Numbered from the stretch's first letter, positions 3,101-52,807 are shown. The stretch is DNA of 64,000 bases from an uncultured Woeseiaceae bacterium (GCA_964607425.1 CAZSKQ010000001.1:27784-91783); one strand, 5' to 3'. Notes: a model not told the origin generated them from the letters alone. Numbers and translations are program-made.

Positions 3101-5041
3101 AACGATGGCGAGCGCATCTTCGAACGTGAACACACCCGCGATCGCGCCCGCGGTAAACTCGCCGATGCTGTGACCGAGCAGCAGCGCCGGCTCGACGCCG
3201 ATGGATGCCAGCGCCTTTGCCAGGCTGAACTCGAACAAAAACAGCGCCGGCTGCGCAACGGCCGTGGCTTCGATACTTTTTTCGCTGGCCCCCGACGCGG
3301 TAAACAGCGCGCTTTCGAGATCGGGTCCGCCGTGATCGCGCAAGCACGCAAGGCCGCGATCGAACCACTCGCGAAACACAGGGGATTGCTCGCGCAGGCC
3401 CGCGCCCATATCGGGCCGCTGGGCTCCCTGCCCCGTGAACATGAACCCGATCCGGCGCCCGGGCATCGCCTTTCCGCGTACGGCGCGGCGCGCGTCATCC
3501 AGCGCCTCGCAGGCGTCGGCCAGCGAATGGGTGATCCAGGCGCTCCGGCACCGCATCCGCTCGCGTCCGAATTGCAGGGTGTGCAGCACGGAGGCGTGGG
3601 AAAGGGCCGGCGCCGCATCCCCGAGCCAGTCGCGCAGGCCGCGCGTGGCCCGCGCCAGCGCGTCATCCTCCCTGGCAGAAAGGCACAGCATGCCGGTTCC
3701 ATCCGCGTATTCGGCGGCGGCGACCCGCGGCGGTTCCTCGACGATCACGTGCGCGTTCGTACCGCCGACGCCAAAAGCGCTGACCCCGGCCCGCCGCGGT
3801 CCCCCCGGGCGCCACTCCAAAAGCTCGGAATTGACGTGAAACGGGCCGCTGTCGAGTTCCAGGCGCGGGTTGGGCTTGCGAAAGTGCAGCGTGGGGGGAA
3901 TCTTGCCGTGGTAGACGGCAAGTACCGCCTTGATGAAGCCGGCGACTCCCGCCGCATGCACCAGGTGGCCGATATTGGATTTCACCGAGCCTAAGAGGCA
4001 GGTCTGCCGCGCCGCCGTATCCTCCACGCCGAAGGCCTGTTTGAGTGCCGCGACCTCGATGGGATCGCCGAGTGGTGTCGCCGTGCCGTGGGTCTCGACG
4101 AAGCCGATCGTGCTGGGGTCCACGTCGGCATGCTCCAGGGCGGAGCGGATGACCCCGGCCTGGCCCGCGACGCTCGGCGCCGTATAGCTGACCTTGTCCG
4201 AGCCGTCGTTGTTGACCGCGAACCCGCGGATCGCCGCGTACACGTGATCGCCCTCGGCGATCGCATCCTCGAGCCGGCGCAGCACCACCACGCCCGCGCC
4301 GTCGTTGAAGGTGGTGCCGCTGGCGTCGGCGTCGAACGGCCGGCAGTGACCGTCGGCCGACAGCATCCCGCCTTCCTGGTAGAGGTAGCCCGCGTGCACC
4401 GGCACCGAGAGCGATGCGCCGCCGGCCAGCGCGATGTCGCACTCATAGTTGAGCAGCGACTGGGCGGCCTGGGCAATGGCCACGAGAGAGGTCGAGCAGG
4501 CCGTGCCGACGGTTACGCTCGGCCCGCGCAAGTTGAGCTTGTAGGAGATACGGGTGGCCAGGAAATCGTACTCGTTGGCAAGCGCTGCATTGAATTCCCC
4601 GATCCTGGCCGTGATGTCGGGGCGGCTCGCGAGAATCTGTGCGCGGTAGCGATTCCAGTTCATGCCAACGAAGACACCGATCAGGCCATCGAAAGCCGAC
4701 GGGCGGTGGCCTGCATGCTCCAGCGCGGACCAGGCGAGCTCCAGCAGGAGCCGCTGCTGCGGATCCATGACCGCCGCTTCCAGCGGCGTAATGCCGAAGA
4801 AGGCCGCGTCGAAGCGATCGTAGTCGGCTATCACGCCCTTGGCGCGGATATAGTCGTCCCGGGCCGCCATGCTTTGCGGTACCAGCGGATCGAGCTCATT
4901 CGGCGCAAAGAACCGGATCCCTTCCCGGCCGGCACAAAGGAGTTCCCAGAACTGCCCCACGTTGTCGGCGCCGGGAAAACGGGCACTCATCCCGACGACC
5001 GCCAGGCTGTTTGCAGGCAACGGCTGGTTTACCTCCTCCAT
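191..5041 (-). CDS. Hybrid type I PKS: KS - AT (malonyl-type) - ACP - class III (GSA-like) aminotransferase
   Basis: Track ORF 191..5308 trimmed to ATG 5041 (MEEVNQPLPANSLAVVGMSARFPGA), 6 nt after the upstream stop. KS about 3734-5008 (TACSTS, HGTATPLGD, NIGH). AT about 2594-3457 (GHSIGE, HAFH). ACP about 2054-2287 (LGFDSLL). Ala/Pro linker. PLP aminotransferase about 374-1696 (NTGSEA, VYGKVVGGG). No KR/DH/ER. Confidence 0.9.
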   Translation of the reverse strand: MEEVNQPLPANSLAVVGMSARFPGADNVGQFWELLCAGREGIRFFAPNELDPLVPQSMAARDDYIRAKGVIADYDRFDAAFFGITPLEAAVMDPQQRLLLELAWSALEHAGHRPSAFDGLIGVFVGMNWNRYRAQILASRPDITARIGEFNAALANEYDFLATRISYKLNLRGPSVTVGTACSTSLVAIAQAAQSLLNYECDIALAGGASLSVPVHAGYLYQEGGMLSADGHCRPFDADASGTTFNDGAGVVVLRRLEDAIAEGDHVYAAIRGFAVNNDGSDKVSYTAPSVAGQAGVIRSALEHADVDPSTIGFVETHGTATPLGDPIEVAALKQAFGVEDTAARQTCLLGSVKSNIGHLVHAAGVAGFIKAVLAVYHGKIPPTLHFRKPNPRLELDSGPFHVNSELLEWRPGGPRRAGVSAFGVGGTNAHVIVEEPPRVAAAEYADGTGMLCLSAREDDALARATRGLRDWLGDAAPALSHASVLHTLQFGRERMRCRSAWITHSLADACEALDDARRAVRGKAMPGRRIGFMFTGQGAQRPDMGAGLREQSPVFREWFDRGLACLRDHGGPDLESALFTASGASEKSIEATAVAQPALFLFEFSLAKALASIGVEPALLLGHSIGEFTAGAIAGVFTFEDALAIVAARGAAMQAQPEGSMLTLFCSEEEAREFVTGPIELAAVNGPELTVLSGPTAAINGLQEELEKRGKSCKPLRTSHAFHSAMMEPAVEKLAAVLSRVELNAPRIPIVSTATGVLLSDAAATDPAYWARQLREPVRFAAAVETAAAGGPCVLVEVGPGKALTTLASQCRHSEPPVACAASPEAGIGPSALRQLWEAAARCWVNGADIDFSAHWGERRPRKAPLPAYAFARTRHWVDPAEPRQVAANVPTVTGAPLPETSPKPENTQTERKSMNESARLDSLRTRIARVFEDTSGYDLDDADPDAGFPELGFDSLLLTQVSTALKQEFGVAVSFRELMEEYTTLGELSAHLALQVQDDAPGGEPETAIAAAPPPPPASTMMTNITDTKAPDDVKALIERQLELMQFQLQLLAGNPAAAAAAAPPAAAASVAAAPPVAAVASAAAAAEAPDTGDSKPKRTPGTRIQKTGSAQQLTRAQQAYIDKLIRDYTAATAASKEFVRKHRRHLADPRTVSGFNPTLKEMVYPIVTNRSRGSKLYDLDGREYIDITNAFGPIFFGYSPDFVTEAVLRQIAEGIETGPQSPLAGEVAELFCELTGNERVAFANTGSEAVLAALRLARTVTGRDKVVIFDGAYHGIFDEVVVRAGREGAGLPAAPGIPRAMTSNIIVLPYGSDETLERIRSLAPELAAVMVEPVQSRHPGLQPADFLREVRKITEQSETAFIFDEVVTGFRVHPGGAQAHFGIRADIAVYGKVVGGGYPVGLVGGKARFLDALDGGQWQYGDDSIPEVGVTFFAGTFVRHPLALAACKAVLTRMKEEGPALQENLAARTHSMVEELRRFLQEIDAKVTIEDFSSFFYISVPPDDPYGGLLFYLLRQRGIHAWEFRPCFLTTSHSDADIEAIRNAFIASVSELVLQGLLHGDAVAVERLSKAGAGAPPVAGARLGKDRSGKPAWFVADPERPGKYIKVDDRRAS

Positions 5042-5046
5042 GACGA

Positions 5047-6879
5047 CTACCGCGCTCGGCTGCGCGCCGCCTGCGCGGCGCGCCGCAGTGCCCCGCGGCC
5101 GGGACCCGCGGTCCGCGCCGCGGGCCCGGCAAGCGCGGCCTGCTGGGTGGCGATGGTCGCGTGCTCGAACACGAAAGTGGACGAGAGCGTCACCGGCGCT
5201 TGCTGCTGCAGCAGCTCGTGCAATTGCATGGCCTCCAGCGAGGTGCCCCCCGCATCGAAAAAGTTGGTATCGGGCGATTCGGGCAGGCGTCCCAGCACCG
5301 CCGACCACGCCTGGCGGACCGCATCATAACCGGGCGCCTCGCCCTGCGGCCCGGCCGCCGCAAACGGATCCGGCAATGCGGACGCGTCGAGCTTGCCGTT
5401 CGCGTTGATCGGCCAGCTGTCGAGGCAGGCGAAATAGTGCGGAATCATGTACGCGGGCAGCCGCTTTGCGAGTTGCCGGCGCAGGTCGGCCACGGACAAG
5501 GTGGACGGCAGCAGGTAGGCCGCCAGGCGCTTCTGCCCGGCCGGGCCCTTCCGCACCAAAACACGGCATTCACGCACGCCGTCGAGCTGCTCGATGGCCG
5601 CGCGGATCTCGCCGGGTTCAATGCGGTGACCGTCGATCTTGACCTGGTCGTCGAAACGTCCGAGAAATTCGTATACGCCATCCTCACGCTGCCGGACCCG
5701 GTCGCCGGTCCGGTAGGCGCGCACGCGCCCGCCGGAACCGGCCGCTACGCTGACGAAGCGCTCGGCCGTCTGCTGCGGGTGATTGAGGTACCCCAGAGCA
5801 ACGCCCGCGCCGAGAGCGAGCAGCTCGCCCTCCTCACCCGGCGTGACCGGCTCCAGGGCCTCGTCGACCACGAGCACCCCGGTGCCGGAAATCGGTTCGC
5901 CGATCGGCACGCTTGCGGCATCGGCAGGAAAGTTTCGCGGGATCGCGTAGCAGGTGGTGAACGTGGTGTTCTCGGTAGGGCCGTAGCCGTTGATCAGGCG
6001 CACTTCCGGAAGCGCGGCGAGCGCGCGCACGACGTGCGGGACCGACAGGGCCTCGCCGCCGGTGAGGAGATAGTCGAGACCGGAGAAAGTCCGCAGGTCC
6101 TGGTCCACGACGTTGTTGAACAGGGAGGCGGTCATCCACAGGCAATTCACCCCCGTCTCCGCGATGACCGCACGAAGACCCGCCGCCGTCGGCAGGCGAT
6201 CGTCGGGATAGAGAACGAGGATGCCGCCGTTCAGGAGCGGCGCCCAGATCTCGAGGGTGGAGGCGTCGAAGCTCTGCGGTGCGAGGTGCAGGAAAACAGT
6301 GCCCGCGTTGAGTTCCATGAAATTCGGCCCGAGCACCAGGCGTGCCACGGCCCCATGGGGAACGACGACCCCCTTGGGAACGCCGGTCGATCCCGAGGTG
6401 AACATGATGTAGGCCGGCGTCCCGGCGGCGAACACGGGCGACAAGGCCGCGGGCGGGGCGGTGGCGGGCAACTGGTCGAGGCGCAGGAGCGCGGCCAGGC
6501 CCTCGAATGCCTCCGCCGGCACGCCGGGCGACACGATGAGCGACAGGCCCGCGTCCCGGCAAAGCCGTGACAGGCGCTCGCGGGGGGAATCGGGGTCCAG
6601 GGGCACGTAGTGCGCGCCTAGCGACAGTACGCCAAGCATAGCGGCAACGGTGTCCGGATGACGCGCGGCGGCCAGGCCGACTGCCTGGCCGGCCTGCACG
6701 CCGGATGCCGCCAGCGCCTGGGCGATGGCACCGGCGCGCGCCGCGAGCTCGGCGTAGCTCCACTCGCGCCAGCCCGCCGCTTGCAAAAAACGCACGGCCG
6801 TCCGGTGTCCCGCGCTTTGCGCGATTACGCGAAAGCGCTCATGGATCAGCAATTGGTCGTTGCCCGGAAGAGCATCCAT
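5047..6879 (-). CDS. Stand-alone NRPS adenylation-PCP didomain (loading module)
   Basis: 610 aa. Motifs: MFTSGSTGVPKGV, FDASTLEIW (Asp of the amino-acid code present), GELLALGAGVALGY, YRTGD, NGKLD, then carrier motif FFDAGGTSLEAMQL. Confidence 0.9.
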   Translation of the reverse strand: MDALPGNDQLLIHERFRVIAQSAGHRTAVRFLQAAGWREWSYAELAARAGAIAQALAASGVQAGQAVGLAAARHPDTVAAMLGVLSLGAHYVPLDPDSPRERLSRLCRDAGLSLIVSPGVPAEAFEGLAALLRLDQLPATAPPAALSPVFAAGTPAYIMFTSGSTGVPKGVVVPHGAVARLVLGPNFMELNAGTVFLHLAPQSFDASTLEIWAPLLNGGILVLYPDDRLPTAAGLRAVIAETGVNCLWMTASLFNNVVDQDLRTFSGLDYLLTGGEALSVPHVVRALAALPEVRLINGYGPTENTTFTTCYAIPRNFPADAASVPIGEPISGTGVLVVDEALEPVTPGEEGELLALGAGVALGYLNHPQQTAERFVSVAAGSGGRVRAYRTGDRVRQREDGVYEFLGRFDDQVKIDGHRIEPGEIRAAIEQLDGVRECRVLVRKGPAGQKRLAAYLLPSTLSVADLRRQLAKRLPAYMIPHYFACLDSWPINANGKLDASALPDPFAAAGPQGEAPGYDAVRQAWSAVLGRLPESPDTNFFDAGGTSLEAMQLHELLQQQAPVTLSSTFVFEHATIATQQAALAGPAARTAGPGRGALRRAAQAARSRAR

Positions 6880-7217
6880 AGCTCAAGAATTCCCTGCTGG
6901 TCTGGCGAGCGTGATCGCGCCGTCAGGGGGCGGCATTCTTATGCAGGCGCAAATTGACCCCCGCCGGCGTGACAATACCGGGAATGGTAGCGTCGCGGCG
7001 GGCCGAAGCGCATTGATTGCCGTCACAGTCGCAAACGTGAAGCAGTCCCCGGCGAAACGCGCCGCCCGGCAGCCTTCCAGGAGCGGCCGGGAACGGTCCG
7101 CTCCGCCGTGGCAGGCGGGGCGCAGCGCCGTGGCTGCCTCCCGCTGCAGGCGCAGAGCGACAGCAGGCCCGCGAAACAGCCCGAAACCCAGGTACCGCAA
7201 TCTCATCGACGCCGCCC

Positions 7218-7433: not shown

Positions 7434-9437
7434 ATGCAGAGTCTCTCATGGTACGTCAACCGCCTCATGTCCATGGACACGGCGGAAATACTCTGGCGCG
7501 CCAGGACGGTCGTTCGCGACCGCGTGGACATGCTGCGGGTTCCGCTGGGACGCCTGCCGCGCCTGCCGGACTCCCGCGGGCGCTCACCCGCGCTGTTTAT
7601 CCCGGGTTTTCGTTGCAGCCCCGTGGGGCAGGCTGACTGGCGCGCCCTCGATGCCGGCCTGTCCAGGGCCTGGACAGCACGCTTGCTGGCGAAGGCCGAC
7701 GCAGCACTCGAGAACCGGCTGAGCTATTTCGACCTCGAACGGCAGCACCACGGCGAGCCCTGCAACTGGCATCGCGATTTCTCCGCGGGCAAGGACAGTC
7801 CCCTCCTGCACGTAGCGCGCATCGACTACCGCGATTTTTCGCGTGTCGGCGATTGCAAGCTCGTGTGGGAACCGAACCGCCATCACCAGCTCGTGGTGCT
7901 GGCCCGCGCATGGCGGGTTACCGGGGACCTGCGCTACGCACAGAAGGTTCGCGAGCTGATGCTGTCGTGGATAGAAGCCAATCCATTCGGCTTCGGCATG
8001 AACTGGAAGAGCCCGCTGGAGCTTGCCGTACGGCTGATCAACTGGATCTGGGCTCTCGACCTGACGCGCGACGCCGATGCCTTTACCGAACCCGAATGGC
8101 GAGCCGTGGAAGACCTGTGTTACCTCGCAACCTGGGATGTCCGGCGCAAGCTGTCGCGAGGATCCTCGGCAAACAATCACCTCATCGGCGAGGCCGCCGG
8201 GGTGTATGTCGCAGCCGCCTGGTTTGCCGATTTCCCGCAAGCCGAAGAGTGGCGTGCGCATTGCAAGCAGTTGCTCGAGCAGGAAATCGAGGCGCAAACC
8301 TACGCCGACGGCTGCACCCGCGAGCACGCGTTCGGCTACCAGTTTTTCGTGCTGCAGTTTGCCGTGTTCTCGCTGCTCGCCGGCCGCGGGATCGGCGAGG
8401 AGTTTTCAGCGCGCTTCCTCGATCGCGTGCACAGTATGTTTCGCTTCCTGCACGAGGTCGCGCGCGATACCGGCGCGCCTCCCGCGGTCGGCGACCAGGA
8501 CGACGGCTACGTGCTCGACCTCGGGGAGCTGCCCGCGGACGCCGGGCCGCTGATCGCGGTCGGCGGCGAGCTGTTCGAAGACGACGAGCTGCTCGGGACA
8601 GGCCCGAGCGAAACCTGTTTCTGGATTTCGGGGCGCGTTGCCGGCGGCGGCGCCGCGGGACCGGCCGTCAACGCGGAGTCGGTCCGTTTCGCGGCATCCG
8701 GCTACGCGCTGCTGCGCAGCGGCGCTGCCTCCCCGGCCGGGCGCCTGGCGGTATTCTTCGACTGCGCGGAGCTCGGCTACGGGCCGATCGCCGCACACGG
8801 TCACGCGGATGCCCTGAGCTGCACCGTAGCCGTGGACGGGCGTCCCGTGATCGTCGACCCGGGCACCTACGACTACTTCACCCATCCCGAATGGCGTGCC
8901 TACTTCCGTTCGACACGCGCCCACAACACCGTCGAGCTCGACGGTGTCTCGCAGTCGCAATCGCTGGGGCCGTTCCTGTGGGGCCGCAGAGCCACGGCGC
9001 GCCTGCTGGAGTGGTCCGATACGCCGGCAACGACGATCGCCTGCGGCGAGCACGACGGGTACCGGGGCCTGGCCTCGCCGGTGCTGCACCGGCGCCGGCT
9101 CGCGCTGGATAAGACTGCTTTGCGGCTCTCGATCACGGACACCCTGGAGGGCAGCGGAGCCCACACGGCGCGCTGGCACTTTCACCTGCACCCCGACTGC
9201 AGCCCGCGGCAGGTAGACCCGCACACCGTCGACATCGAAACCGGCAATCACACGCTCCGGCTGCATACGCCGACGTTGGCGCTCTCCGTGGTCCGTGCCG
9301 CGGAAGGCGGACGGCTGGGCTGGATCAGCGCGGGCTATCATCGCCGATCGCCGTCCGCCTGCATCGTGGCGGAATGCCGATTCACGGACGGCTATACCGC
9401 GGCGGCGGAGCTCATCGTCCTCCCGCGTGAGGCGTAA
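7434..9437 (+). CDS. Heparinase II/III-like (alginate-lyase fold) family protein
   Basis: 667 aa. Contains WEPNRHHQL, SSANNHLIGEAAG, a central toroid-like region and C-terminal AAHGHADALS, characteristic of heparinase II/III-like proteins found in polysaccharide loci. Confidence 0.8.
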   Translation: MQSLSWYVNRLMSMDTAEILWRARTVVRDRVDMLRVPLGRLPRLPDSRGRSPALFIPGFRCSPVGQADWRALDAGLSRAWTARLLAKADAALENRLSYFDLERQHHGEPCNWHRDFSAGKDSPLLHVARIDYRDFSRVGDCKLVWEPNRHHQLVVLARAWRVTGDLRYAQKVRELMLSWIEANPFGFGMNWKSPLELAVRLINWIWALDLTRDADAFTEPEWRAVEDLCYLATWDVRRKLSRGSSANNHLIGEAAGVYVAAAWFADFPQAEEWRAHCKQLLEQEIEAQTYADGCTREHAFGYQFFVLQFAVFSLLAGRGIGEEFSARFLDRVHSMFRFLHEVARDTGAPPAVGDQDDGYVLDLGELPADAGPLIAVGGELFEDDELLGTGPSETCFWISGRVAGGGAAGPAVNAESVRFAASGYALLRSGAASPAGRLAVFFDCAELGYGPIAAHGHADALSCTVAVDGRPVIVDPGTYDYFTHPEWRAYFRSTRAHNTVELDGVSQSQSLGPFLWGRRATARLLEWSDTPATTIACGEHDGYRGLASPVLHRRRLALDKTALRLSITDTLEGSGAHTARWHFHLHPDCSPRQVDPHTVDIETGNHTLRLHTPTLALSVVRAAEGGRLGWISAGYHRRSPSACIVAECRFTDGYTAAAELIVLPREA

Positions 9438-10261
9438 GCGGACTCGAATCGCCGCAGCAGCGTGTCGAGCAGCAGCGCCCGATCTTCCTCGAAGATCTGG
9501 ACGTGCTCTATGTACGGCAGGAAATCGACCGCGACATCGCGGGTGTCGAGTTCGGGAAACATGGCGGCGAACTGGCCGGTGCCATGGAACGTGTCAATGC
9601 TGCCGCCGGTATAGACATAATGCACGTGGACTCCGCGGCCGAGCAGGACGCGGAGGATCCGCGTGGCTTCTTCCCGGTCCATGTACTGGTAGTCGATGAG
9701 CGTACCTTCGAATCCTTCGACACTCGAAGAACTCTGGCCGTTTCCAGGCAGGCGGACGACGCCCGCGATCTTCAGCAGCCGGTATATGAGCCGGTTCAAT
9801 GTATAGCGCGTGCAGTAGCTCCGTACGCGCCACCAGGGCGTCTCGTAAGCGTGCGGATCGATCAGGATCACGCCCCGTACGCGCTCATCGCCTTCCGCGT
9901 ACCGCAACGCATCCTCCGCGCCCGAGCACAAACCGCCGACGATGAATTCGCACAGGCCGTACTCTTGCTCGAGGAAAGCCAGCGCTTCCCGGATATCCCG
10001 CTCCGTTCTTGCCGCCAGCGGCAGCCCCGGGGTGTCGACCTGGCTCAGCCCGATACCGCCGAGATCGAAGCGCAGCGTAACGCAGCCGTCGCCTGCCAGC
10101 CTGCGCGCCCACTCCGCGTACAGGCGGTAAGGGCCCGGCTTCGCCGTCAGGCCGGCTGACACCAGGACGCACGCGACCCCCGGGCGCCGGGTCGCGAGCG
10201 GCAAGCTCACGACGCCCTTCAGGCGGCCTCCCGTACCGAACTGGCACGCGATCTCCTTCAC
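9392..10261 (-). CDS. Alpha/beta hydrolase with Cys at the nucleophile elbow (resembles exosortase-A-associated hydrolase 1)
   Basis: 289 aa, GTG start overlapping the upstream stop (GTGA). Fold markers VLVSAGL, RFDLGGIG, elbow GGLCSGA (G-x-C-x-G). Its 3' end overlaps the convergent heparinase-like gene by 46 nt. Confidence 0.7.
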   Translation of the reverse strand: MKEIACQFGTGGRLKGVVSLPLATRRPGVACVLVSAGLTAKPGPYRLYAEWARRLAGDGCVTLRFDLGGIGLSQVDTPGLPLAARTERDIREALAFLEQEYGLCEFIVGGLCSGAEDALRYAEGDERVRGVILIDPHAYETPWWRVRSYCTRYTLNRLIYRLLKIAGVVRLPGNGQSSSSVEGFEGTLIDYQYMDREEATRILRVLLGRGVHVHYVYTGGSIDTFHGTGQFAAMFPELDTRDVAVDFLPYIEHVQIFEEDRALLLDTLLRRFESAYASRGRTMSSAAAV

Positions 10262-13200
10262 CGGCCGCTACCCTGCAGCGCTTCGCCCAGGCGCTCGAGA
10301 ATGTCTTTCGCGGTAATGGCCACCGTTACGCGCGACGCCTGGCTCCAGGTAGCCGCGGTACCGGTGATCGCTTGCGGAAACCCGTCGAACACGTCCAATG
10401 CCTCGCGATATGCTCCGGCGTAATCGGGTGACAGCACCAAGCGGATATCCGCGGCCTCGGGCAGATCGCTCCTGTGCAGCCGCAGTGCCTGGAGATCGGC
10501 AATCGCCGCATCGCTGTAGCGGGTCCCTACCAATTCTTCGCCGCCGGGAATCGGGCGCGGTTTCCGGAGATTGCGTTTCAGCATCAGCTTCCGGGCTTTC
10601 TCCTGCGACATGCGCAGGAGTTCGCGATACCAGGGTGCACCGTCGGTGAGCGGATCCCAGAAAACCCACCTGTCGACCAGGTCCGCCGGCAGCGCCTGCA
10701 ACGCGAGAGCACTCGCAAGGCGCATTGCAAACAGCCGGATGTGCGCTACCCCCGCACGCTGCCTGAGCTCCTCGGCGGCAGCGAGCAGGTCCGTGCGCCA
10801 GCGCGCGGGCCCGCCCTCGAGATCGCTCCCGAGGGAGTCGGCCGAGCCGAAGAAGTCGAAGCGCAGTGACGGTATCCCCGCGTCCGCCAGCCGCTCCATC
10901 AGGTTACGCAGGAGAAAATGACAGCGTGTGTATTCAAACCCCAATGGCGGGCAGATCAGCACCGGTGGCGAAGTGGACTCGGCGCGCGCGGGGCTGTAGA
11001 CGCCATACAAGCTGTCGCCGGACCCGAAGTAAAACGTCGAGACGGGCCAGATCTCGCGCGTCATTGCCGCACCGGCCGCGGGCTCCGCCTTGCCCGCGTG
11101 CTCGTCGATCCTGTGTGCCAGGATCCAGAGGGACTCCCGTAGCACGTCCATGCCGTCCAGGCGATAGCCGAGTTCCCGCTCGACAAGAAAGATCATTTCC
11201 ATCGCAAGCAGCGAATCGCCGCCGAGCAGCATGAAATTGTCATCCAGGCTCACGCGCTCGACCTTCAAAAGGTCGCGCCAGATTCGTGCCACCGCCTTTT
11301 CGGTTTCGTTCACGGGCGGGTTCGCTGTCGCCGGCGCTGCAAAGGAAGGCTGCGGCAACCGGCGCCGGTCGATCTTCAGGTTGTGATTGAGCGGCAGCTC
11401 ATCCAGAGCCACGTAAAAGGCAGGCACCATGTAGTCGGGCAACCTCGACACCATGTGCGCGCGCAGGGTCTCGGGGTTGGCGCGCCCGCTGTCGTCCGGC
11501 ACGTACCAGCCTACGAGCACCGCCTCGCCGCGTTGATGCGCATGCGCGGCCGCCACGGCCTCGCGCACACCGGGAGCCTGGCGCAGGTGGTAATCCACCT
11601 CCGCGAGCTCGATTCGCATGCCTCGCAGCTTGAGCTGGAAATCCCGCCGTCCGAGCAGCTCCAGGTCTCCGCTTTCGGTCAGGCGGCCCCGGTCGCCCAT
11701 GTGATACCACCTGGTGCCATCCTTTTCGACGAAACGTAAGTTGGCTTGCAGCTTACGGTTCACGTAGCCGGCCACGACCCCGGGTCCGCCGAAGCAGACG
11801 TCGCCGGCCACGCCGACCGGCACCCGGTTACCGTCGTCATCGAGCACGAGCAGGTGCACGTTTGCGAACGGCTTGCCGACCAGGGTTCGCTCCACGCGCT
11901 CGCTGGAGCAGTCCCAGGTGCAGCCCATCAGGGCAATCTCGCTGCTGCCGTAGATCACGTACAGCTCGGCCGCGGTGAAGATCTCCCGCAGCTCGCGCAG
12001 CAGCTCCGGCGGGACCATGTCGCCGCCGGAGGAGGCGTGCCGAACGCGCTGAAATTCGCTGTCGGGATCGCTGACGTTTTCACGGATGTACCGTACCAGG
12101 CTCTTCAGCAGCGACGGCCCGATGTGGAACAGCGTGACTTCCCGCAGGGTAGCCGTCATGCGAGCCAGATCGAGCACGTGCTCTCGTTCCAGCACCAGCA
12201 GCGTGCCGCCGACCGACAGCGCAGCCGTGAGCTCGAACAAGCTGATGCTGAACGTGAACGCTGCGACCGCGGGAATCACGTCGTTGGCGTCGATCGCGTA
12301 GCGCAAGCGCGAGACGTTGACGATATGGCTCAGGTTAGCGTGCGTTCCGGCTACGCCCTTCGGCTGCCCGGTGCTTCCCGACGTGTAGTACACGTAGGCA
12401 AGCTGCTCGGGCCGGATGTGAACCCGGGGAGCCACGGCAGGTTCGTTCGTGAACGAGGCCGGAGGATCGTCGAGGTTGATCCGGGCGATATCGAAACCCT
12501 CGACCGCGCGGGCGGAGCGCGTCGACGTGAGGATCAGTTCCGGGCGCGTGTCCTCGACGATGGCGCGCGTCCTGAACTCCGGATGCAGCGGATTCACCGG
12601 CACGTACGCAGCGCCGGCCTTCAGGATTCCGAGCAGCGCCACCGCGATGTGGAAGGACGGCTCGAGGCAGACGATGACGGCTTTACCGTCCGTGACGCCG
12701 CTTCGGTGAAGGTATGACGCCAAGCGATTGGCCCGGCGGTCCAGCTCCGCATAGCTGAGCTCGGCACCGTTGAATCGCACCGCTGCCTTGTGAGGCGTGT
12801 TCCGGGCGTGTGCCGCGACTTCATCGTGCACCCGCGTCGGACGAAAGTGCACGACCGGCCCGCGGCCGTGCCTGGCAAGCCAGGCGAGCTCCGCCGGCGT
12901 ATGCAGCCGCAGCTCCCGAACCGGGGCCGCACCCTCCCCGTCGAGCTGCTCGGCGATCAGGCTGAAATGCTCCAGCAGGCGGGCGGCAGTGCCGGCGGCC
13001 AGCAGGCTTTCGTTGTAAAGGAGGGAAACCGTCAGCGAGTCCCCGACAAACGTGAGTTCCAGCGTCACGTCGGCTTCCCGGCCGATGGTATCCGGAACGT
13101 GCGCCCGGGACCGCTGGCCGAAAGCAACGTCGACCACCAGCGGCGGCACCGCGCCGGTTGCCGGCTTCGCGTTACCAACAGCCGAGTTCGCCCGGCTCAT

Positions 13201-13530
13201 CAGCTCTGCAGCCGTGGTTGCACCGGTCACCGGTATCGTGACCATGCGGCAGGAAGCGTCGCCCATCCCCGCCAGGCGCAACACCAGCGGGATGTCCGCC
13301 TGGCCGGAATAGCGATAGAAGAGCGCCCCCGACGAGGCGACGGCAAGGTTGAGCCGCCGCTCACGCGCATCCGTCTCCGCCCGCCGCAGCAGCTTCACGG
13401 TTCGGTCGGGCGCCACCCGCGCCGGCCGGAACGGCGTATCGGGCGTCTTCAGCCGCTCCCAAGGCAGCTGCAGCGCGACATCGTCATGGGCCGGAACCGA
13501 CTGCGTTTGCGAAGCCAGGGTCGATATCAT
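10258..13530 (-). CDS. NRPS-like fusion: truncated C domain - adenylation - PCP - alpha/beta hydrolase-like domain
   Basis: 1090 aa. The N-terminal about 200 aa resemble the C-terminal half of a condensation domain. A domain: YYTSGSTGQPKGV, FTFSISLFE (no Asp at the amino-acid-code position), YHMGDRG, LKIDRR. PCP: LLGGDSLLAMEM. C-terminal alpha/beta fold: VLICPPLG, RFDFFGSADSLG, elbow FAMRLAS. Confidence 0.85.
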   Translation of the reverse strand: MISTLASQTQSVPAHDDVALQLPWERLKTPDTPFRPARVAPDRTVKLLRRAETDARERRLNLAVASSGALFYRYSGQADIPLVLRLAGMGDASCRMVTIPVTGATTAAELMSRANSAVGNAKPATGAVPPLVVDVAFGQRSRAHVPDTIGREADVTLELTFVGDSLTVSLLYNESLLAAGTAARLLEHFSLIAEQLDGEGAAPVRELRLHTPAELAWLARHGRGPVVHFRPTRVHDEVAAHARNTPHKAAVRFNGAELSYAELDRRANRLASYLHRSGVTDGKAVIVCLEPSFHIAVALLGILKAGAAYVPVNPLHPEFRTRAIVEDTRPELILTSTRSARAVEGFDIARINLDDPPASFTNEPAVAPRVHIRPEQLAYVYYTSGSTGQPKGVAGTHANLSHIVNVSRLRYAIDANDVIPAVAAFTFSISLFELTAALSVGGTLLVLEREHVLDLARMTATLREVTLFHIGPSLLKSLVRYIRENVSDPDSEFQRVRHASSGGDMVPPELLRELREIFTAAELYVIYGSSEIALMGCTWDCSSERVERTLVGKPFANVHLLVLDDDGNRVPVGVAGDVCFGGPGVVAGYVNRKLQANLRFVEKDGTRWYHMGDRGRLTESGDLELLGRRDFQLKLRGMRIELAEVDYHLRQAPGVREAVAAAHAHQRGEAVLVGWYVPDDSGRANPETLRAHMVSRLPDYMVPAFYVALDELPLNHNLKIDRRRLPQPSFAAPATANPPVNETEKAVARIWRDLLKVERVSLDDNFMLLGGDSLLAMEMIFLVERELGYRLDGMDVLRESLWILAHRIDEHAGKAEPAAGAAMTREIWPVSTFYFGSGDSLYGVYSPARAESTSPPVLICPPLGFEYTRCHFLLRNLMERLADAGIPSLRFDFFGSADSLGSDLEGGPARWRTDLLAAAEELRQRAGVAHIRLFAMRLASALALQALPADLVDRWVFWDPLTDGAPWYRELLRMSQEKARKLMLKRNLRKPRPIPGGEELVGTRYSDAAIADLQALRLHRSDLPEAADIRLVLSPDYAGAYREALDVFDGFPQAITGTAATWSQASRVTVAITAKDILERLGEALQGSGR

Positions 13531-14639
13531 CGGGAATCCAGCACCGGTGACGCCGCGGCTCCCCCGGCACGCGGCCGGACGTCGGCCGCCGTGGCAACCG
13601 CACGGACGCCCTGCCGGAACCCGTGGCGGTCGCGCGCGCGCGCCAAAAACAGCAGCAGGAGGGCCGGGTCTTCCGCCGCCGGCATGTGGAGGCGCTTCAG
13701 GGAATAGGGGTCGTCGCCGACGCTGTTGATGCCGACGTCCGTCGTGACGGCCGACCTGTAGCCGGCCTGCGCCACCGCTCTCGCGATCTGCGGATTCCAG
13801 TTACCGTTGGGGTAGCAGAAATGGAGGCAGGGTTCGCCGGTCGTCGCCTCGATATACCTGCGCGAACGGTCGAGCTGCTGCATCCGGGTTTGCTCGTCGA
13901 CGACATCCAGCCGCACATGATCGACGGTATGGCTGCCGATAGTAGCGGAACCGGATGAGCTCAGGAGCCCGAGATCTTCCTTCGACAGCGTGGCACTGCA
14001 GGGGTCGCTATCCTGTATGTCGGCAAGAGCCTTTCCCGCTGCTCTCTCCAGCCGCCCGCTGACACCGTCGACAAAGGCGTAGAACTCACGATCATCGTCG
14101 AAGTGCTTCTTCGCCAGCCGGCGCAGCTCTGCATAGGTAGCGCGAAGCGATTCGCGATCGCCGGGATTGAAAGTCAAAGAACGGGTGCCGATCCTGACCT
14201 GGGTCGGTTGTTTCAGGTTCTGTATTGCATAATCGAGGCGCTCGAACCAGTACGGCGCCCGGCTGTCGAGCATGCCGGTTGCGACATAGAACACCGGCTT
14301 GATCCCGTATTCCTTCAGCACCGGCAGCGCCACCTCCATGTTATTGCGGTAGCCGTCATCGAAAGTGAGTACCACACCGTTGGGGACCATCGGCTTGTTG
14401 CCCGCCAGTATCTCCAGGGCCTCGTCGATGGACAGCCATCGGTAATGGCGGCTGATGACGGCAAGCTGGCGACGCAAGCGGTCGACGGAGAAATGGATCC
14501 TGAGGGGCTGCCAGGGGGCGGTCTTCGGATCGATAACGCTGTGCAGGCAAAGAATGAGCACGCGCCGCCGGTTGGTCCATCGAAGCCACCGGGTTATCCC
14601 GGTCCAGAGAAGAAGCCTGGCTATTGTTTTTTTTATCAT
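13527..14639 (-). CDS. Polysaccharide deacetylase (CE4/NodB family)
   Basis: 370 aa. N-terminal TM, LTFDDGYRNN, IGSHTVDH, FCYPNGNW. ATGA overlap with the downstream gene. Confidence 0.85.
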   Translation of the reverse strand: MIKKTIARLLLWTGITRWLRWTNRRRVLILCLHSVIDPKTAPWQPLRIHFSVDRLRRQLAVISRHYRWLSIDEALEILAGNKPMVPNGVVLTFDDGYRNNMEVALPVLKEYGIKPVFYVATGMLDSRAPYWFERLDYAIQNLKQPTQVRIGTRSLTFNPGDRESLRATYAELRRLAKKHFDDDREFYAFVDGVSGRLERAAGKALADIQDSDPCSATLSKEDLGLLSSSGSATIGSHTVDHVRLDVVDEQTRMQQLDRSRRYIEATTGEPCLHFCYPNGNWNPQIARAVAQAGYRSAVTTDVGINSVGDDPYSLKRLHMPAAEDPALLLLFLARARDRHGFRQGVRAVATAADVRPRAGGAAASPVLDSR

Positions 14640-14779
14640 GCCTCACCATTCGGCCGCACAGGCGGCTCTCTCGTCATGGCGATAGGGCAAGGGTGGCTCC
14701 CTCTCCACCGCCTCGCCGATGCGCGCACTCCGCGCGATCCTGTCCGCCCCGTCATGATATCAGTAAAATGCGATGCATA

Positions 14780-15982
14780 TCAGGTACATGGCGCCAGAAT
14801 CCCGTCCCATTGCGCGGCGACGTTCGAAGTGGCCAGGCGCATGGCATCGCGGCGTGCCCGGGCACCGAGCGTTCGGCGAAGCGCTGCATCCTCGCAAAGA
14901 AGCGAGAGCTTTTCCGCGAAAGCGTCGACGCTCGAGGGTGTGACGAGATACCCGTTGATGCCATCCTGGACCAGGTCGCCAAGATCGCCCACGTCGCTGA
15001 CGACAACGGGTAGCGCGCACAGCATCGCCTGCACCATGGCCTGCGACAGGCCTTCGGACTCGGAAGTCAGCACGAAAACGCGGCTGCGCTTGAGCCATGC
15101 ATGCACGTCACTCTGCCAGCCGACGAAGTCCACGCGGTCCGCAACCCCATGCGCTTCCGCGAATTCCATGAGCTCACCGCGGAGGGGACCATCGCCGACG
15201 ATCGCCGCCCGCACGGCGCCGCCAAGGCGCGCTATGGCTTCGATCAGCACGTCGACCCTCTTCACTCGCGAGAGCCGCCCCACCAGCACGAGGTCGTAGT
15301 CCGGTGCCGCCTCCGCCGGCGCGAACAAGTCGGCATCGAAGCCTCCCGGCACGACGACGACCTGCCCGGATGCGCCCGCCCGTTCGAAGAACCGGCGCAC
15401 GCTCTGACCCATCGTGACGATGTAGTCGAACCGGCCGGCCGCTGCGAGCAGCTTCCTTTCGACATAAGGGCTCGGACCCTGCAGGCGGCGAAAGATCTGG
15501 TTTTCGGTTGCATAACCGCCGCCGTCGACTTCCCGTGCACCGCCGCCGCAGATGTACAGGGAGCGCGCCCCGATCGCACGCGCCACCAGGAGAGCAATGA
15601 GCCCGTTGACCAGCAGGTGGAAACCGCCGACGACGTCGGCCCGGCTGCGCACGGCCACGCGCACGAAGGTCGCCAGCCTCGCGGAGGTCCTGCCGCAGAG
15701 GCGCACCAGCCAGCGGGCGGGGTATACGGCCTCGACGCCGGGGATCTCCGGAACCGGCGATGCCGCAACCATGGTGATCCGCCGGATGGAACGCGAACGG
15801 GCCATCGGACGCAGGTGTGTCTCCAGCCAGTTGTCGGTGTAAAAGGTACCGGTCAGCACCACGTGCGCGCCCGCGGCCGGGAGCGGCCGCTGCTTCGGGC
15901 CCAGCCGCTCCGCGAGCCGGATGGCGCCTGACAGCAAAGTGATGAACGCCGCGATGGCAGCGCGCAGGATGGCGCGTTTCAC
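14780..15982 (-). CDS. Glycosyltransferase family 4
   Basis: 400 aa. C-terminal GT-B motif SESEGLSQAMVQAMLCALPVVVSDVGDLGDLVQDGINGYL. Confidence 0.85.
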   Translation of the reverse strand: MKRAILRAAIAAFITLLSGAIRLAERLGPKQRPLPAAGAHVVLTGTFYTDNWLETHLRPMARSRSIRRITMVAASPVPEIPGVEAVYPARWLVRLCGRTSARLATFVRVAVRSRADVVGGFHLLVNGLIALLVARAIGARSLYICGGGAREVDGGGYATENQIFRRLQGPSPYVERKLLAAAGRFDYIVTMGQSVRRFFERAGASGQVVVVPGGFDADLFAPAEAAPDYDLVLVGRLSRVKRVDVLIEAIARLGGAVRAAIVGDGPLRGELMEFAEAHGVADRVDFVGWQSDVHAWLKRSRVFVLTSESEGLSQAMVQAMLCALPVVVSDVGDLGDLVQDGINGYLVTPSSVDAFAEKLSLLCEDAALRRTLGARARRDAMRLATSNVAAQWDGILAPCT

Positions 15983-17094
15983 AGCGTTTCCTCGAACAGC
16001 CGCTCGAAGCGGCTCATCGCGACGTCAATGGCATGATGTCGTTCGAACCATGCGCGCGCGCGCACGCCGACGGCTGCGCGCTCTCCGGATTCCTGTACGA
16101 GGCGGCTGATCTCGCGGCAGAACGCATCACTGTCCGCCGCCACCGCCCCGAGGCCCTCGCGCGCGATCAGCCCGTCGGGATCCACCGTCGACACGACGGG
16201 CAGGCCCGCGCTCCACGCCTCGATGAAGGTATTCGGGAAACCTTCATAGTGCGACGTGCAACAGAGGGCGGTGGCGCCACGATATAGTTCGGCCAGCTGC
16301 TGCTTGCCGGCCGCACCGAAAAACTCGAGGTTCGGCACCGTGCGTGCGGCCTCCTGCACCTCGGGGACATAGGGGTCGGACGGATCGCCCGGCCCGACGA
16401 CGACGAAACGGAAATCCGGCAGCCGTTGCGCGACTTCCACGAACAGCGCGATGTTCTTCTCCGGGGCGATGCGGCCGACCAGAAGCAGCATCGGCGGCTT
16501 GCCGGGCGTCCCTTCGGGCGCGCCCCAACCCGGTCCGTAATCGTGACCCGGCATCGGCAGAATGGTGGCGGGCCGCCCGGTCGCCTGCTCCAGCCGCCGC
16601 CCCTGGTCGCCGGTCTGCACGATGATCCTGTTCGCCGCGCCAAGCCCGTAGCGGTAGAGCATGCCCTCGCGCAGCGAGGTGCCCCCATGCAGCCATTCGT
16701 TGCAATCGATATCGCTCGCGACCGAGAACACGAACTTGCGCCGGTGCCGGCGACACCAGAGCGCCACCTGGCCTGTCACTTCCTCTGCGCCGTTCTGGTA
16801 ATAGAGCTCGGCGTCGGCGGCGCCGAGCGCGGTATTCAGGGAACTCCAGCGGGGTATGAAGAAGCGTACGAACGGAACGCCTGCCGCACGTGCGCAGGTC
16901 TTGATTACCCGCACGTTATCGAAAGTTTCGGTCGGCGGCCCACCCTCATCCCAGGTGATCAGCGAAACCTGGTGCCCCCGGCCCGCCAGCCAGCGGGCCA
17001 GCATCGAGGTCTGGCGCTCCACCCCGCCAATGTGGCCGGTGCGCCGGCCGCTGATCATGCCGTAGGCGTTGTGGGCTACGATCGCTATTCGCAT
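15979..17094 (-). CDS. Glycosyltransferase family 4
   Basis: 371 aa. MRIAIVAHNAYG..GG.E, SHYEGFPNTFIEAWSAGLPVVST. 4-nt overlap with the next gene. Confidence 0.85.
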   Translation of the reverse strand: MRIAIVAHNAYGMISGRRTGHIGGVERQTSMLARWLAGRGHQVSLITWDEGGPPTETFDNVRVIKTCARAAGVPFVRFFIPRWSSLNTALGAADAELYYQNGAEEVTGQVALWCRRHRRKFVFSVASDIDCNEWLHGGTSLREGMLYRYGLGAANRIIVQTGDQGRRLEQATGRPATILPMPGHDYGPGWGAPEGTPGKPPMLLLVGRIAPEKNIALFVEVAQRLPDFRFVVVGPGDPSDPYVPEVQEAARTVPNLEFFGAAGKQQLAELYRGATALCCTSHYEGFPNTFIEAWSAGLPVVSTVDPDGLIAREGLGAVAADSDAFCREISRLVQESGERAAVGVRARAWFERHHAIDVAMSRFERLFEETL

Positions 17095-17353
17095 TCTCGT
17101 TCAGAATCCATCGCCGCCCGCGGGCGCAGTCTTGCTACCGATTTATATTCGTTCGGCCGCCCCCATGCGAAGCCCGGCGGCGCACCTGCACAAGGCCGGC
17201 GCGGGCGGTTTCGGTCCGGTGCATGTTCCGGGTTGCGCGTCCGCCAACCTTGTAACCTGCTTCGCGTATCGGCTCAAGGGATCAGTTCGCAATTTAATCG
17301 TGCATGAGAACGGGCGGCGGCTGCGAGCCCGGCGAGCGTGACAGGCCGCCGGG

Positions 17354-18412
17354 TCAATCCTGCACGGTACCGGTGACGGCGCCCTGCACCTGGACGCGTA
17401 CCGGTGCCTTGATCGTGTTACCCGTGACCGTGATGTCCCTCGTGTGGCGCAGCTGGATGCCGACTTCGCGGGCCGTGATGTCGTTACCCTCGATCACATG
17501 GCCTGACACCCCGCTCGATACGATGCCAAGGCTGGTGTCCAGGATGACATTGTCGAGAATCGCCGCATCAAACGCGTCGTCGTGGATGACCACAGCGGCG
17601 CCGGAGCTGGACTGAGTGGGCCTGAATCCCTCCATCCGCACGCCCGACACCACCACGTTGCGGGAATCCTTGATGTCGACCGCGTTTTCACGGTTGTGGT
17701 GGAAATAGCCGCCGCCGATATAGACTCGCTCGGCGCTGCCGCGGCTGGCGTCCCCGACCTGGACGGAATCGCCCGAGACGTCGTAGATTTCCGCATTGAG
17801 CACCCACTGGTCCGGGCCGAACAGCTTCATACCGTGGAAATCCTGCTCGTCCGCGTGCTGGCGGTTGTCACCGAAACCGTGGATGGATCCCCGGATCCAC
17901 ACGTTGCCTTGCCCAAGGCCCACCGCCGATGAGTAGCCCGAGGCCGTCCCCGGCCCCGCCACCTCGAGGTCGCGAATGACGCAGAAACTGCAGCCGCGGG
18001 AGCTGAACCAGTCACCGCGGCCGGAGCCCGCGTTGACCAGCCCACCGTCCAGGACCACGAAGGTACCGGACAGGCTCAGGTTCGTGAAACTCGCGCCGGA
18101 GGCATCGATCACGCAGGGGGCTTTGGCGCTGCCGTTACAGGAGAGCGTGTCCTTGCCGCGATCACCTGTGACCGTCCGGTCGGCCGGGTAGTCGGCCCAG
18201 ACGTCGAAGCCCAGCAGGTCGGAGGGGTCGGGGATACCGCGAAACGTTGAAGAATTCGACGGGGCGTTTACGCTGCTGCCCGCGGGACCGGGGGCAGCCT
18301 CCGGTGGCCCGGGCCGCTGGGAGGCAACGCTCGTCGCTGCCGGCGAACAGCCGGCGAGGCACGACCCGCTAGTGAGTATCGCAAGCAGCAGGCGGCCGAA
18401 CACGTGGTCCAT
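17354..18412 (-). CDS. Right-handed beta-helix lipoprotein, paralogue of the C-terminal module of the 809-aa lyase-like protein
   Basis: 352 aa. Lipobox LAGC. From about residue 53 it aligns without gaps with residues about 508-809 of the upstream gene (FRGIP.PSD.LGFDVWADY, NVWIRGSIHGFGDNRQ, GGGYFHHNRENAVDIKDSR). Confidence 0.75.
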   Translation of the reverse strand: MDHVFGRLLLAILTSGSCLAGCSPAATSVASQRPGPPEAAPGPAGSSVNAPSNSSTFRGIPDPSDLLGFDVWADYPADRTVTGDRGKDTLSCNGSAKAPCVIDASGASFTNLSLSGTFVVLDGGLVNAGSGRGDWFSSRGCSFCVIRDLEVAGPGTASGYSSAVGLGQGNVWIRGSIHGFGDNRQHADEQDFHGMKLFGPDQWVLNAEIYDVSGDSVQVGDASRGSAERVYIGGGYFHHNRENAVDIKDSRNVVVSGVRMEGFRPTQSSSGAAVVIHDDAFDAAILDNVILDTSLGIVSSGVSGHVIEGNDITAREVGIQLRHTRDITVTGNTIKAPVRVQVQGAVTGTVQD

Positions 18413-39899: not shown

Positions 39900-39918
39900 A
39901 CCGGCCCTGCCGTGGGTA

Positions 39919-39943
39919 TTCGCGCGCGCTGCGCGCTCCTGCA
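39919..39943 (-). repeat. REP-like element, single copy
   Basis: TTCGCGCGCGCTGCGCGCTCCTGCA, between the kinase stop and the deacetylase-like gene. Confidence 0.75.
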
Positions 39944-39969
39944 ACCGGGGGCGGGGCTTCTCGCCCGAG

Positions 39970-46798: not shown

Positions 46799-46926
46799 AT
46801 TTTGCTTCCCGGGAATTCGTTCTTGGGTGGGCTGGCACGCCGATTATACAGATTGTGCGCGCGTTCTGGATTCCCCCCGGGGATGCCTGTAATCTCCCGC
46901 GCCGTGCCCCGTAGGCAGAAGCAAAC

Positions 46927-52207: not shown

Positions 52208-52253
52208 TACGTTTTACTTGGCCGAGACGAAATGGGACGCGCAGGTGTGCCGG

Positions 52254-52529: not shown

Positions 52530-52807
52530 GCCTGCTGCCTTGCAACAGGCGTGCGCCCACGCGAGTCGACGATTTTTCCCGTTATTTTGCTTCCGGCTCC
52601 CCTGCACCGCTGAAGCTCGCTCCGGCAACCCACGCCGCGGACTTTCTGCTGTCCTGAAATGGAAGAGAGCTTTGTGCTCCATGCCCGGCAAACCGTGCAT
52701 GTGGACACGTCTCACGGCCCGATGCAGAATGTCTTCGCTGTAACAGCTTACCAATCGAAAGCGGCCGATTTCGTGCTGCTCCCCGTGCCTGACCAATAGG
52801 ATCGTCG

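Follow-up and report, generated by a model that had tools for sequence, protein, structure and literature searches.

The window analysed here is a stretch of 64,000 nucleotides from an uncultured Woeseiaceae bacterium (GCA_964607425.1, CAZSKQ010000001.1:27784-91783), and our subject is a unit of three genes on its minus strand. The first gene (13527..14639, 370 aa) encodes a NodB-type polysaccharide deacetylase. It is followed by a large open reading frame (ORF; 10258..13530, 1090 aa) whose product joins a remnant of a condensation domain (C*), an adenylation (A) domain, a peptidyl carrier domain (PCP) and an alpha/beta-hydrolase fold that we call AB2. The third gene (9392..10261, 289 aa) encodes a stand-alone alpha/beta hydrolase, AB1. 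The stop codon of the deacetylase gene overlaps the ATG of the large ORF in an ATGA junction, and the GTG start of AB1 overlaps the TGA stop of the large ORF by 4 nt (GTGA at 10258-10261). With these overlaps at both junctions, the three genes form one translationally coupled unit. The start assigned to the large ORF is correct, since the N-terminus MKEIACQFG agrees with that of the homologues. None of the three proteins has a hydrophobic segment of the transmembrane type, which is consistent with a cytoplasmic location for all of them. An initial annotation, made from the sequence alone, had already placed both hydrolase-bearing ORFs and their GTGA overlap at these coordinates.

The large protein reads as a one-module loader of the nonribosomal peptide synthetase (NRPS) kind, with adenylation motifs and carrier serine intact. 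Pfam AMP-binding, AMP-binding_C and PP-binding all match it. The A domain (11326..12846, residues 229-735) scores 341.8 bits against the amino-acid adenylation model TIGR01733 (cut-off 317.4) over residues 259-660. Its core motifs A3 (YTSGSTGQPKG), A7 (YHMGDRG) and A8 (GRRDFQLKLRGMRIEL) are present, and the A10 lysine, the equivalent of Lys517, is Lys719, invariant in the homologue alignments. The carrier domain (11095..11298, about residues 745-812) gives a PP-binding match of 40.7 bits spanning residues 746-797. Its phosphopantetheine site is Ser773 in LGGDSL (codon 11212-11214), which is likewise invariant in the homologue alignment.

Residues 1-228 (12847..13530) are best described as a condensation-domain remnant. 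They match positions 391-451 of the 456 of Pfam Condensation only faintly (E = 0.0058), and comparison with the PDB yielded marginal matches only (residues 933-1011 of 8xjz, the pre-A region of an NRPS structure, E = 0.007). We did not find the HHxxxD active-site motif in the large protein, and no two-lobed, full-length condensation domain is present. Homologues also show faint Condensation matches; in those from Polyangiaceae the region is absent. The domain order proposed in the initial annotation, C remnant-A-PCP-alpha/beta fold in one chain, is thus what the hidden Markov model (HMM) matches give. Strong HMM support for all domains, together with conserved orthologues, shows that this pattern is not due to chance.

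For comparison, we assembled 80 genome loci by means of an AB1 profile and about 20 more from metagenomes and plasmids, and searched all six reading frames of each with HMMs derived from the domains of the window. Counts for the wider family refer to the best 148 AB2-family representatives.

AB2 (10258..11055, residues 826-1090 and the stop codon) has an arginine where a hydrolase has its nucleophile. The best NCBIfam family of the C-terminal 280 aa is TIGR03101 (hydr2_PEP, E = 2.4e-16). In the AlphaFold model (mean confidence score, pLDDT, 88.1), Arg937 of FAMRLAS (codon 10720-10722) follows strand 121-126 and precedes helix 128-136 (domain numbering), which is the geometry of a nucleophile elbow. 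The arginine is found in 82 of 86 loci and in 146 of the 148 wider-family representatives, the remaining two having Lys. A conserved tryptophan, Trp1062, occupies the loop after the last strand, where the catalytic His normally sits, and the only conserved His, His871, is on helix A. A canonical Ser-His-Asp triad elsewhere in the domain was not found among the conserved columns. The proposal of an Arg elbow in the fused hydrolase therefore holds, with no hidden triad.

Other columns of AB2 are strongly conserved: Cys860 (140/148), Glu866 (145/148), His871 (129/148), Arg937 (146/148) and Trp958 (145/148), the last within a conserved Trp958-x-Pro960. Cys860 directly follows strand 3, the usual place of an oxyanion-hole residue. 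The classical triad is gone, and a conserved pocket has been kept. The description of AB2 as a non-catalytic docking domain remains unproven, because the conservation of Cys860, Glu866, His871, Arg937 and Trp958 exceeds what a passive scaffold would need.

In AB1 the elbow holds a cysteine. Its best family is TIGR03100 (hydr1_PEP, E = 3.9e-16). In an alignment of a 29-homologue profile with PDB sequences, its GGLCSGAED falls on GLSMGG, the serine elbow of hydrolases of known structure. The AlphaFold model (pLDDT 81.7) places Cys112 of GGLCSGA (codon 9926-9928) between strand 105-111 and helix 113-124, the candidate acid Asp135 (9857-9859) after strand 128-134, and His253 (9503-9505) after strand 243-248. 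The cysteine is present in 89/89 loci, the histidine in all 75 aligned sequences and the aspartate in 88 of 89; 118 of 120 more distant relatives also have the Cys elbow. The assignment of a Cys elbow to the stand-alone hydrolase is thereby confirmed by profile alignment, model geometry and conservation. AB1 has a Cys-His active site at the canonical positions, as in a Cys-type hydrolase or transferase.

Fold searches with both models returned generic alpha/beta hydrolases (TM-scores 0.55-0.68), among them TTL lipase, feruloyl esterases, monoglyceride lipases, LuxD and DcsB. Such model-based matches do not tell transferase, thioesterase and polymerase readings apart. The Thioesterase family PF00975 is absent from the Pfam matches of the large protein and of AB1, and for AB2 it is absent even at E values up to 10.

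The best-scoring named families of both hydrolases come from exosortase-A systems. The initial annotation took the unit for a fusion of the exosortase-A-associated ligase, acyl carrier protein (ACP) and hydrolase 2, followed by a Cys-type hydrolase. In its strict form, this would make the cassette a fused orthologue of the four-gene set of ligase, ACP, hydrolase 2 and hydrolase 1, doing the same job as in XrtA systems. The family matches speak for it, as do two unlike alpha/beta hydrolases encoded side by side, a trait of hydrolases 1 and 2, and the XrtA-system genes in the window. However, all three specific models fall far short of their curated cut-offs: TIGR03098 (acyl-CoA ligase, exosortase A system-associated) gives 204.4 bits against 592.35, TIGR03101 gives 60 bits against 202.75 on AB2 (profile positions 4-148 of 266), and TIGR03100 gives 59.2 bits against 168.45 on AB1 (positions 11-158 of 274). 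The A domain passes the NRPS adenylation model instead. We therefore regard the cassette as a relative of the exosortase-A gene set rather than its fusion, and strict orthology as improbable.

The wider family agrees with this assessment. Among 38 further AB1 or AB2 relatives scored, none passes the TIGR03100 or TIGR03101 cut-offs; ten AB2 homologues reach 50-106 bits, ten AB2-family representatives at most 141.8 bits and ten relatives of the nearest AB1 half at most 109 bits. A tblastn search of plasmids for members of these two families returned only proteins named 'alpha/beta (fold) hydrolase', and our literature search found nothing on exosortase-A-associated hydrolases 1 and 2. The cassette is also widespread in loci without a PEP-CTERM context.

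The locus itself does carry genes of an XrtA/PEP-CTERM system, as had been proposed. PrsK (603 bits, cut-off 300), the chain-length determinant (409, cut-off 278.85) and the export protein (203.7, cut-off 180) all exceed their thresholds, while the tyrosine autokinase and the amidotransferase fall just under theirs. No exosortase match was obtained among the roughly 45 window ORFs scanned, and the gene may lie beyond the window. PrsR, a FemAB protein and an XrtA-type deacetylase were not found among the ORFs scanned either; the ORF beside PrsK (38760-40151, minus strand), at the place expected for PrsR, matches no family.

A canonical XrtA locus on plasmid pYa108 of Vibrio alfacsensis (L096, 5176-7087) has an 'XrtA system polysaccharide deacetylase' followed by a 'FemAB family XrtA/PEP-CTERM system-associated protein', and no hydrolase 1 or 2. 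FemAB-family proteins are aminoacyl-tRNA-dependent aminoacyl transferases. By analogy, other machinery in the window may serve for the same sequence of deacetylation and re-acylation.

Across about ten phyla or classes, 88 of the 89 loci have AB2 directly before AB1; the exception is a Variovorax locus (L087, 5395-10921) in which AB1 comes straight after an NRPS, with no AB2. Four arrangements were observed. About 45 loci have, like the window, a protein of the form [C-remnant]-A-PCP-AB2 followed by AB1. Their hosts include Woeseiaceae, other Gammaproteobacteria, Burkholderiales and the cultured Aliikangiella coralliicola, as well as Polyangiaceae, Kofleriaceae, Cyclobacteriaceae, Elusimicrobiota, Gemmatimonas, Verrucomicrobiaceae and Bdellovibrionota. 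In three loci (L046, L049, L062) a multi-module NRPS ends in PCP-AB2 and AB1 follows. Separate AB2 and AB1 genes follow a large NRPS or a hybrid of NRPS and polyketide synthase (PKS) in about 24 Variovorax genomes and in six further loci (L063, L089, L090, L093, L099, L100). Finally, 29 of the 148 best family representatives are single-chain AB2-AB1 proteins of about 590 aa. One more locus (L044, 8313-10771) encodes a protein with C-remnant, PCP and AB2, without an adenylation domain.

The elbows persist in the single-chain fusions, GxRxG in most of them and GxCxG in all. Examples are GYRMG/GLCAG in Azospirillum oryzae, GLRAGA/GICSGA in Mycetohabitans rhizoxinica, GVRAGA/GICSGA in Burkholderia cenocepacia and GHGIG/GRCSG in Roseateles. 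AB2 has been joined with the carrier in one set of lineages and with AB1 in another, a gene-fusion pattern of the classical kind which makes physical cooperation of carrier, AB2 and AB1 likely. Adjacency and fusions both support the initial proposal that the two alpha/beta proteins function jointly. By all these comparisons, AB2 and AB1 behave as an evolutionarily obligate pair.

This pairing bears on the idea that AB1 is a proofreading enzyme, similar to type II thioesterases, which clears mis-loaded carriers. A stand-alone hydrolase beside a carrier-containing synthetase would be compatible with such a role. However, apart from L087, AB1 always occurs with AB2 and is sometimes fused to it; its nucleophile is Cys rather than Ser, PF00975 is not among its matches, and L099 has a separate PF00975 thioesterase besides. 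We consider a proofreading function very improbable.

AB2 belongs to a large family. HMMER, run over the full set of 1.84 billion representatives, returned 26,284 AB2 proteins at E <= 1e-3 and, at E <= 1e-30, at least 4,691 clusters at 50% identity. The apparent rarity of AB2 in a word-index search (12 matches) was rejected as a sensitivity artefact, which the full scan corrected. AB1 has hundreds of homologues. Public names for the AB2 family are limited to 'alpha/beta hydrolase', and no paper on it was found in our literature search.

What the carrier holds is suggested by the A domains. The ten pocket residues of each were read by alignment to the window A domain; the FDxS, GGE, YGPTE and A10 Lys motifs fixed the positions, and the LgrA alignments served as a cross-check. 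In the window they are S428, I429, F432, H469, S500, G502, I526, L534, M535 and K719 (codons checked), that is, SIFHSGILMK. The initial annotation had reported FTFS in place of FDxS. The lack of Asp was right and the register was two residues off: in HMMER alignments to both LgrA adenylation domains it is F427-S428-I429-S430 that sits on FDxS. Thus Ser428, not Thr426, stands in place of Asp235, the residue that binds the substrate alpha-amino group.

All 45 single-module homologues share the code S-I-(F/Y/L)-H-S-G-I-(L/C)-M-K, and its invariance across phyla points to a single substrate of these proteins. The best PDB match of the A domain is module 2 of LgrA, which is specific for glycine (238 bits), and its nearest relatives among the loci are glycine-type A domains. 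Relative to a glycine pocket, the window code retains Ile236, Gly301 and the small hydrophobic floor, and changes Asp235 to Ser, Gln278 to His, Leu299 to Ser and Trp331 to Met. We infer that the substrate is a glycine-sized acid without a protonated alpha-amine, for example of the glycolate, glyoxylate or malonate type. Glycine itself is not excluded. We did not adopt it because the Asp235Ser change is invariant in the single-module family, while glycine-coded relatives keep Asp.

The multi-module lines give the same size class. The last A domain before AB2/AB1 has the glycine code DILQLGLIWK in L099 and L100 and DILQLG(L/M)VWK in L046, L049, L063 and L090; in L062 and L093 it reads DILQ-GMVWK, a glycine code with one position unaligned. 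The Variovorax lines have a related code, DMPQWGGVYK, and L089 has a serine-like one. In Azospirillum (L091) and Mycetohabitans (L098), the carrier loader is annotated as 'amino acid--[acyl-carrier-protein] ligase'. Enzymes of this class load Gly, Ala or Ser on carriers, and their biological role 'remains unknown' (PMC9437257). As far as pocket codes can tell, the carrier upstream of AB2/AB1 is usually glycine-loaded.

The operon with this ligase is conserved on an Azospirillum oryzae plasmid (L091, 2288-9939) and on pBRH01 of Mycetohabitans rhizoxinica (L098, 1388-10788). It comprises genes for an ACP, an acyl-CoA dehydrogenase-like protein, the ligase, a DUF1839 protein, a GH2 glycosidase and the AB2-AB1 fusion. 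In L099 (1-12234) and L100 (1-12174), an NRPS-PKS-NRPS line ends in the DILQLGLIWK module; AB2, AB1, a flippase of the MOP family and a phosphopantetheinyl transferase come after it. This cluster is common, since the index of the collection has the AB1 of L099 in 94 blocks.

Regarding a possible acceptor, the deacetylase is the sole recurrent neighbour of the cassette with an obvious chemical meaning. The window enzyme matches PF01522 (82.5 bits), keeps the metal-binding motifs TFDDGY and HTVDH and lacks a hydrophobic segment (maximum KD19 of 0.98). The XrtA-specific deacetylase model is not among its listed matches, and we regard it as a generic NodB-type enzyme. Of about 43 loci, 7 have a homologous deacetylase gene beside the cassette; they belong to three phyla and show three orientations. 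Two neighbour-clustering runs, in which several clusters were alternate-frame artefacts of high-GC DNA, revealed no third gene that is universally conserved beside the cassette, only lineage-specific neighbours. Additionally, AB2/AB1 pairs occur in other polysaccharide loci (L092, L094, L097), and in L004 the pair lies beside an Acyl_transf_3 gene.

Taking this together, we propose that the deacetylase, C*-A-PCP-AB2 and AB1 form a carrier-dependent acyl-transfer unit, a reading to which we assign a probability of about 0.5. The A domain would adenylate a glycine-sized carboxylic acid without a protonated alpha-amine and load it on Ser773. AB2, tethered to the carrier, would bind AB1 as a heterodimer and present the thioester. 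The acyl group would then move from Ser773 to Cys112 of AB1, forming a thioester intermediate; here we infer a carrier-to-Cys acyl relay of the kind that the initial annotation had suggested. Finally, acyl-Cys112 would be resolved by an acceptor nucleophile and not by water, because hydrolysis would turn a one-module enzyme into a futile cycle. The most speculative step concerns the acceptor, which in this locus could be the free amine of an amino sugar on a polysaccharide precursor, made by the upstream cytoplasmic deacetylase. The overall interpretation offered at the outset is in this way partly retained: the pairing, the two elbows and the loss of Asp stand, and the fusion of the exosortase-A set does not.

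Several points weigh against this proposal. Most single-chain fusions have Asn where AB1 has Asp135, which makes the triad acid uncertain. The preserved Cys860/Glu866/His871/Arg937 cluster means that AB2 itself may be catalytic. The cassette often has housekeeping genes as its only neighbours (L007, L008); since a universal third gene is lacking as well, a polysaccharide acceptor cannot hold in general. Lastly, many AB2/AB1 pairs end multi-module NRPS or PKS lines, which looks like product release rather than sugar decoration.

The last point leads to a different view, in which the pair acts as a thioesterase or cyclase split over two proteins: Cys112 would take over the acyl or peptidyl chain and set it free as a small molecule, either by hydrolysis or by an intramolecular attack. 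On this view the cassette would make a secondary metabolite, as a synthetase in miniature, and would lie in a polysaccharide locus by chance. AB2 indeed takes the place of a terminal thioesterase behind the final carrier; multi-module NRPS and NRPS-PKS lines end in such pairs (Variovorax L065-L088, L063, L099/L100, and L089 beside a TonB receptor), and the cassette also occurs outside polysaccharide loci. Yet a one-module enzyme with hydrolytic release would spend ATP in a futile cycle, its truncated C domain is unable to carry out a condensation, PF00975 is not listed for either domain, and the recurrent polysaccharide contexts and the coupling to a deacetylase would go unexplained. We hold release of this kind to be possible, though rather unlikely, as we do the chance placement of the cassette that it implies.

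The conserved cysteine of AB2 allows a further alternative, a two-thiol condensing or oligomerising enzyme. Here Cys860 of AB2 and Cys112 of AB1 would each hold a carrier-delivered unit, and the pair would join these units repeatedly in the manner of the GxCxG polyhydroxyalkanoate (PHA) synthases, giving a dimer, which might be cyclic, or a short polyester or polyamide. The GxCxG box of AB1 presumably resembles the lipase box of PHA synthases, Cys860 lies next to the elbow Arg together with Glu866 and His871, and the two-gene cassette is self-contained, with no conserved neighbour to supply an acceptor. However, no PHA synthase appears in the top 50 fold matches of either model, and pairs that follow multi-module NRPSs need no iteration. 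We find such condensation improbable, and keep carrier-dependent acyl transfer as the preferred reading.

The surroundings of the unit in the window are also of note. A heparinase II/III-like gene (7434-9437, plus strand) runs towards AB1, and the 3' ends of the two genes share 46 nt. The window also has a sulfotransferase gene (29227-30255, minus strand) and genes for UDP-glucose dehydrogenase and UDP-GlcNAc 2-epimerase (45455-48021), and the combination hints at a polymer that is sulfated and similar to glycosaminoglycans. L001, the closest relative locus, likewise has genes for a heparinase and a sulfotransferase. It also carries a phosphopantetheinyl transferase gene after the cassette (8580-9245) and a set of Asn-synthase, ACP, AMP-ligase, NAD-synthase-like and ATP-grasp genes (12398-18297), both of which the window lacks. 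A set of Asn-synthase, ACP, ligase and NadE genes lies beside the Roseateles AB2-AB1 fusion in L092.

Within the polysaccharide locus of the window there is a second adenylation-carrier system (191-6882, minus strand). Its adenylation-carrier protein (5047-6882) has the valine-like pocket code DALWLGGTFK and is followed by a polyketide synthase of 1711 aa, with KS-AT-ACP and a class III aminotransferase and without a thioesterase. In L089, an aminotransferase-C-A-PCP line ends in AB2 and AB1; by analogy with it, the second system and the AB2/AB1 unit might cooperate.

Between 50000 and 64000, the G+C content drops from about 0.66 to 0.54-0.59. This part of the window holds a second polysaccharide set, with a WecA/MraY-like transferase (50205-51308), a short-chain dehydrogenase/reductase (51254-52213), a GT2 glycosyltransferase (52793-53656), a flippase (60398-61759) and, at the window end, a fragment of an export protein. 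It may be a separately acquired block.

In Burkholderia cenocepacia (L097, 8953-10740), an AB2-AB1 fusion lies between a Poly_export gene and genes for a GT1 glycosyltransferase and a flippase. Bcam1334 in the Bep cluster of this species, which may or may not be the L097 gene, has been listed as a TIGR03100 match and guessed to be a polysaccharide quality-control hydrolase (PMC3584217).

In general terms, a vague 'alpha/beta hydrolase' annotation becomes a concrete unit: an obligate pair of an Arg-elbow and a Cys-elbow protein behind glycine-loaded carriers. The family is large, apparently unstudied and, by its pocket codes and loaders, consistently tied to glycine-sized carrier-bound units. 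Its three independent fusion topologies argue for physical interaction. We tentatively suggest that AB2/AB1 is a widespread, undescribed two-subunit (amino)acyl transferase for such units and, equally tentatively, that one subunit has a canonical Cys nucleophile and the other an active site rebuilt around Arg, Cys and His.

If this is true, the pair would be the missing downstream enzyme of three systems: the exosortase-A ligase/ACP/hydrolase set, the operons of amino acid:carrier-protein ligases, whose role has been unknown since 2010, and a class of NRPS lines that end in glycine. Its role in polysaccharide loci such as that of the window would be to attach small N- or O-acyl groups as decorations once N-acetyl groups have been removed. 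A transferase would thus explain how small acyl or aminoacyl groups reach some exopolysaccharides, account for the exosortase-A hydrolase 1 and 2 genes and for the amino acid:carrier-protein ligases, and offer a new offloading mechanism for NRPS engineering. Cultured, tractable hosts are available in Burkholderia cenocepacia, Variovorax paradoxus, Azospirillum, Mycetohabitans and Aliikangiella coralliicola.

Among known systems, the exosortase-A set of hydrolases 1 and 2, TIGR03098 and ACP resembles the cassette in having an adenylating enzyme, a carrier and two unlike alpha/beta hydrolases in adjacent positions. No named family scores better with AB1 and AB2 than those of this set (E about 1e-16), which is also uncharacterised. 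Unlike that set, the window has an NRPS A domain and three of the four parts fused, and the cassette extends beyond XrtA loci.

A second parallel is found in Nod-factor synthesis, where NodB de-N-acetylates the sugar and NodA then N-acylates it from an acyl carrier protein. The window likewise has a NodB-type deacetylase upstream, translationally coupled to a carrier-dependent acyl donor system. However, NodA is not an alpha/beta hydrolase, and the acyl group in the window would be small and not a fatty acid. The link to the cassette comes from gene neighbourhood alone, in the 7 loci with an adjoining deacetylase out of about 43.

The operons of amino acid:carrier-protein ligases are closed by single-chain AB2-AB1 fusions in Azospirillum and Mycetohabitans, and a small aminoacyl-carrier is there the likely substrate. 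They differ in their loader, which has a class II aminoacyl-tRNA synthetase fold (an atypical seryl-tRNA synthetase homologue) and is not an NRPS A domain, whereas the A domain of the window lacks the amine-binding Asp.

In mechanism, the closest known enzymes are trans-acting transferases such as SyrC and CmaE, which use an active-site Cys. CmaE, SyrC and CouN7 are alpha/beta-fold transferases that take acyl groups from carriers (PMC8748450). Their likeness to the proposed unit is functional and drawn from the literature: a trans-acting enzyme shifts an (amino)acyl group from a carrier thioester to another nucleophile. They have no obligate pseudo-hydrolase partner; CmaE and SyrC pass the group to another carrier, and CouN7 passes it to a deoxysugar. 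In layout, the nearest case is PacP of pacidamycin biosynthesis, an A-T-TE0 tridomain NRPS with an inactive terminal thioesterase (PMC8748450), which shows the same order of A domain, carrier and dead hydrolase as the window protein. TE0 is regarded as simply inactive, while AB2 stands for a large family in which the GxRxG elbow is conserved and a partner of the Cys type is always present. The unit would thus join the known cases of carrier-dependent acyl transfer or offloading by alpha/beta-fold enzymes, and its division of labour between Arg and Cys is unusual.

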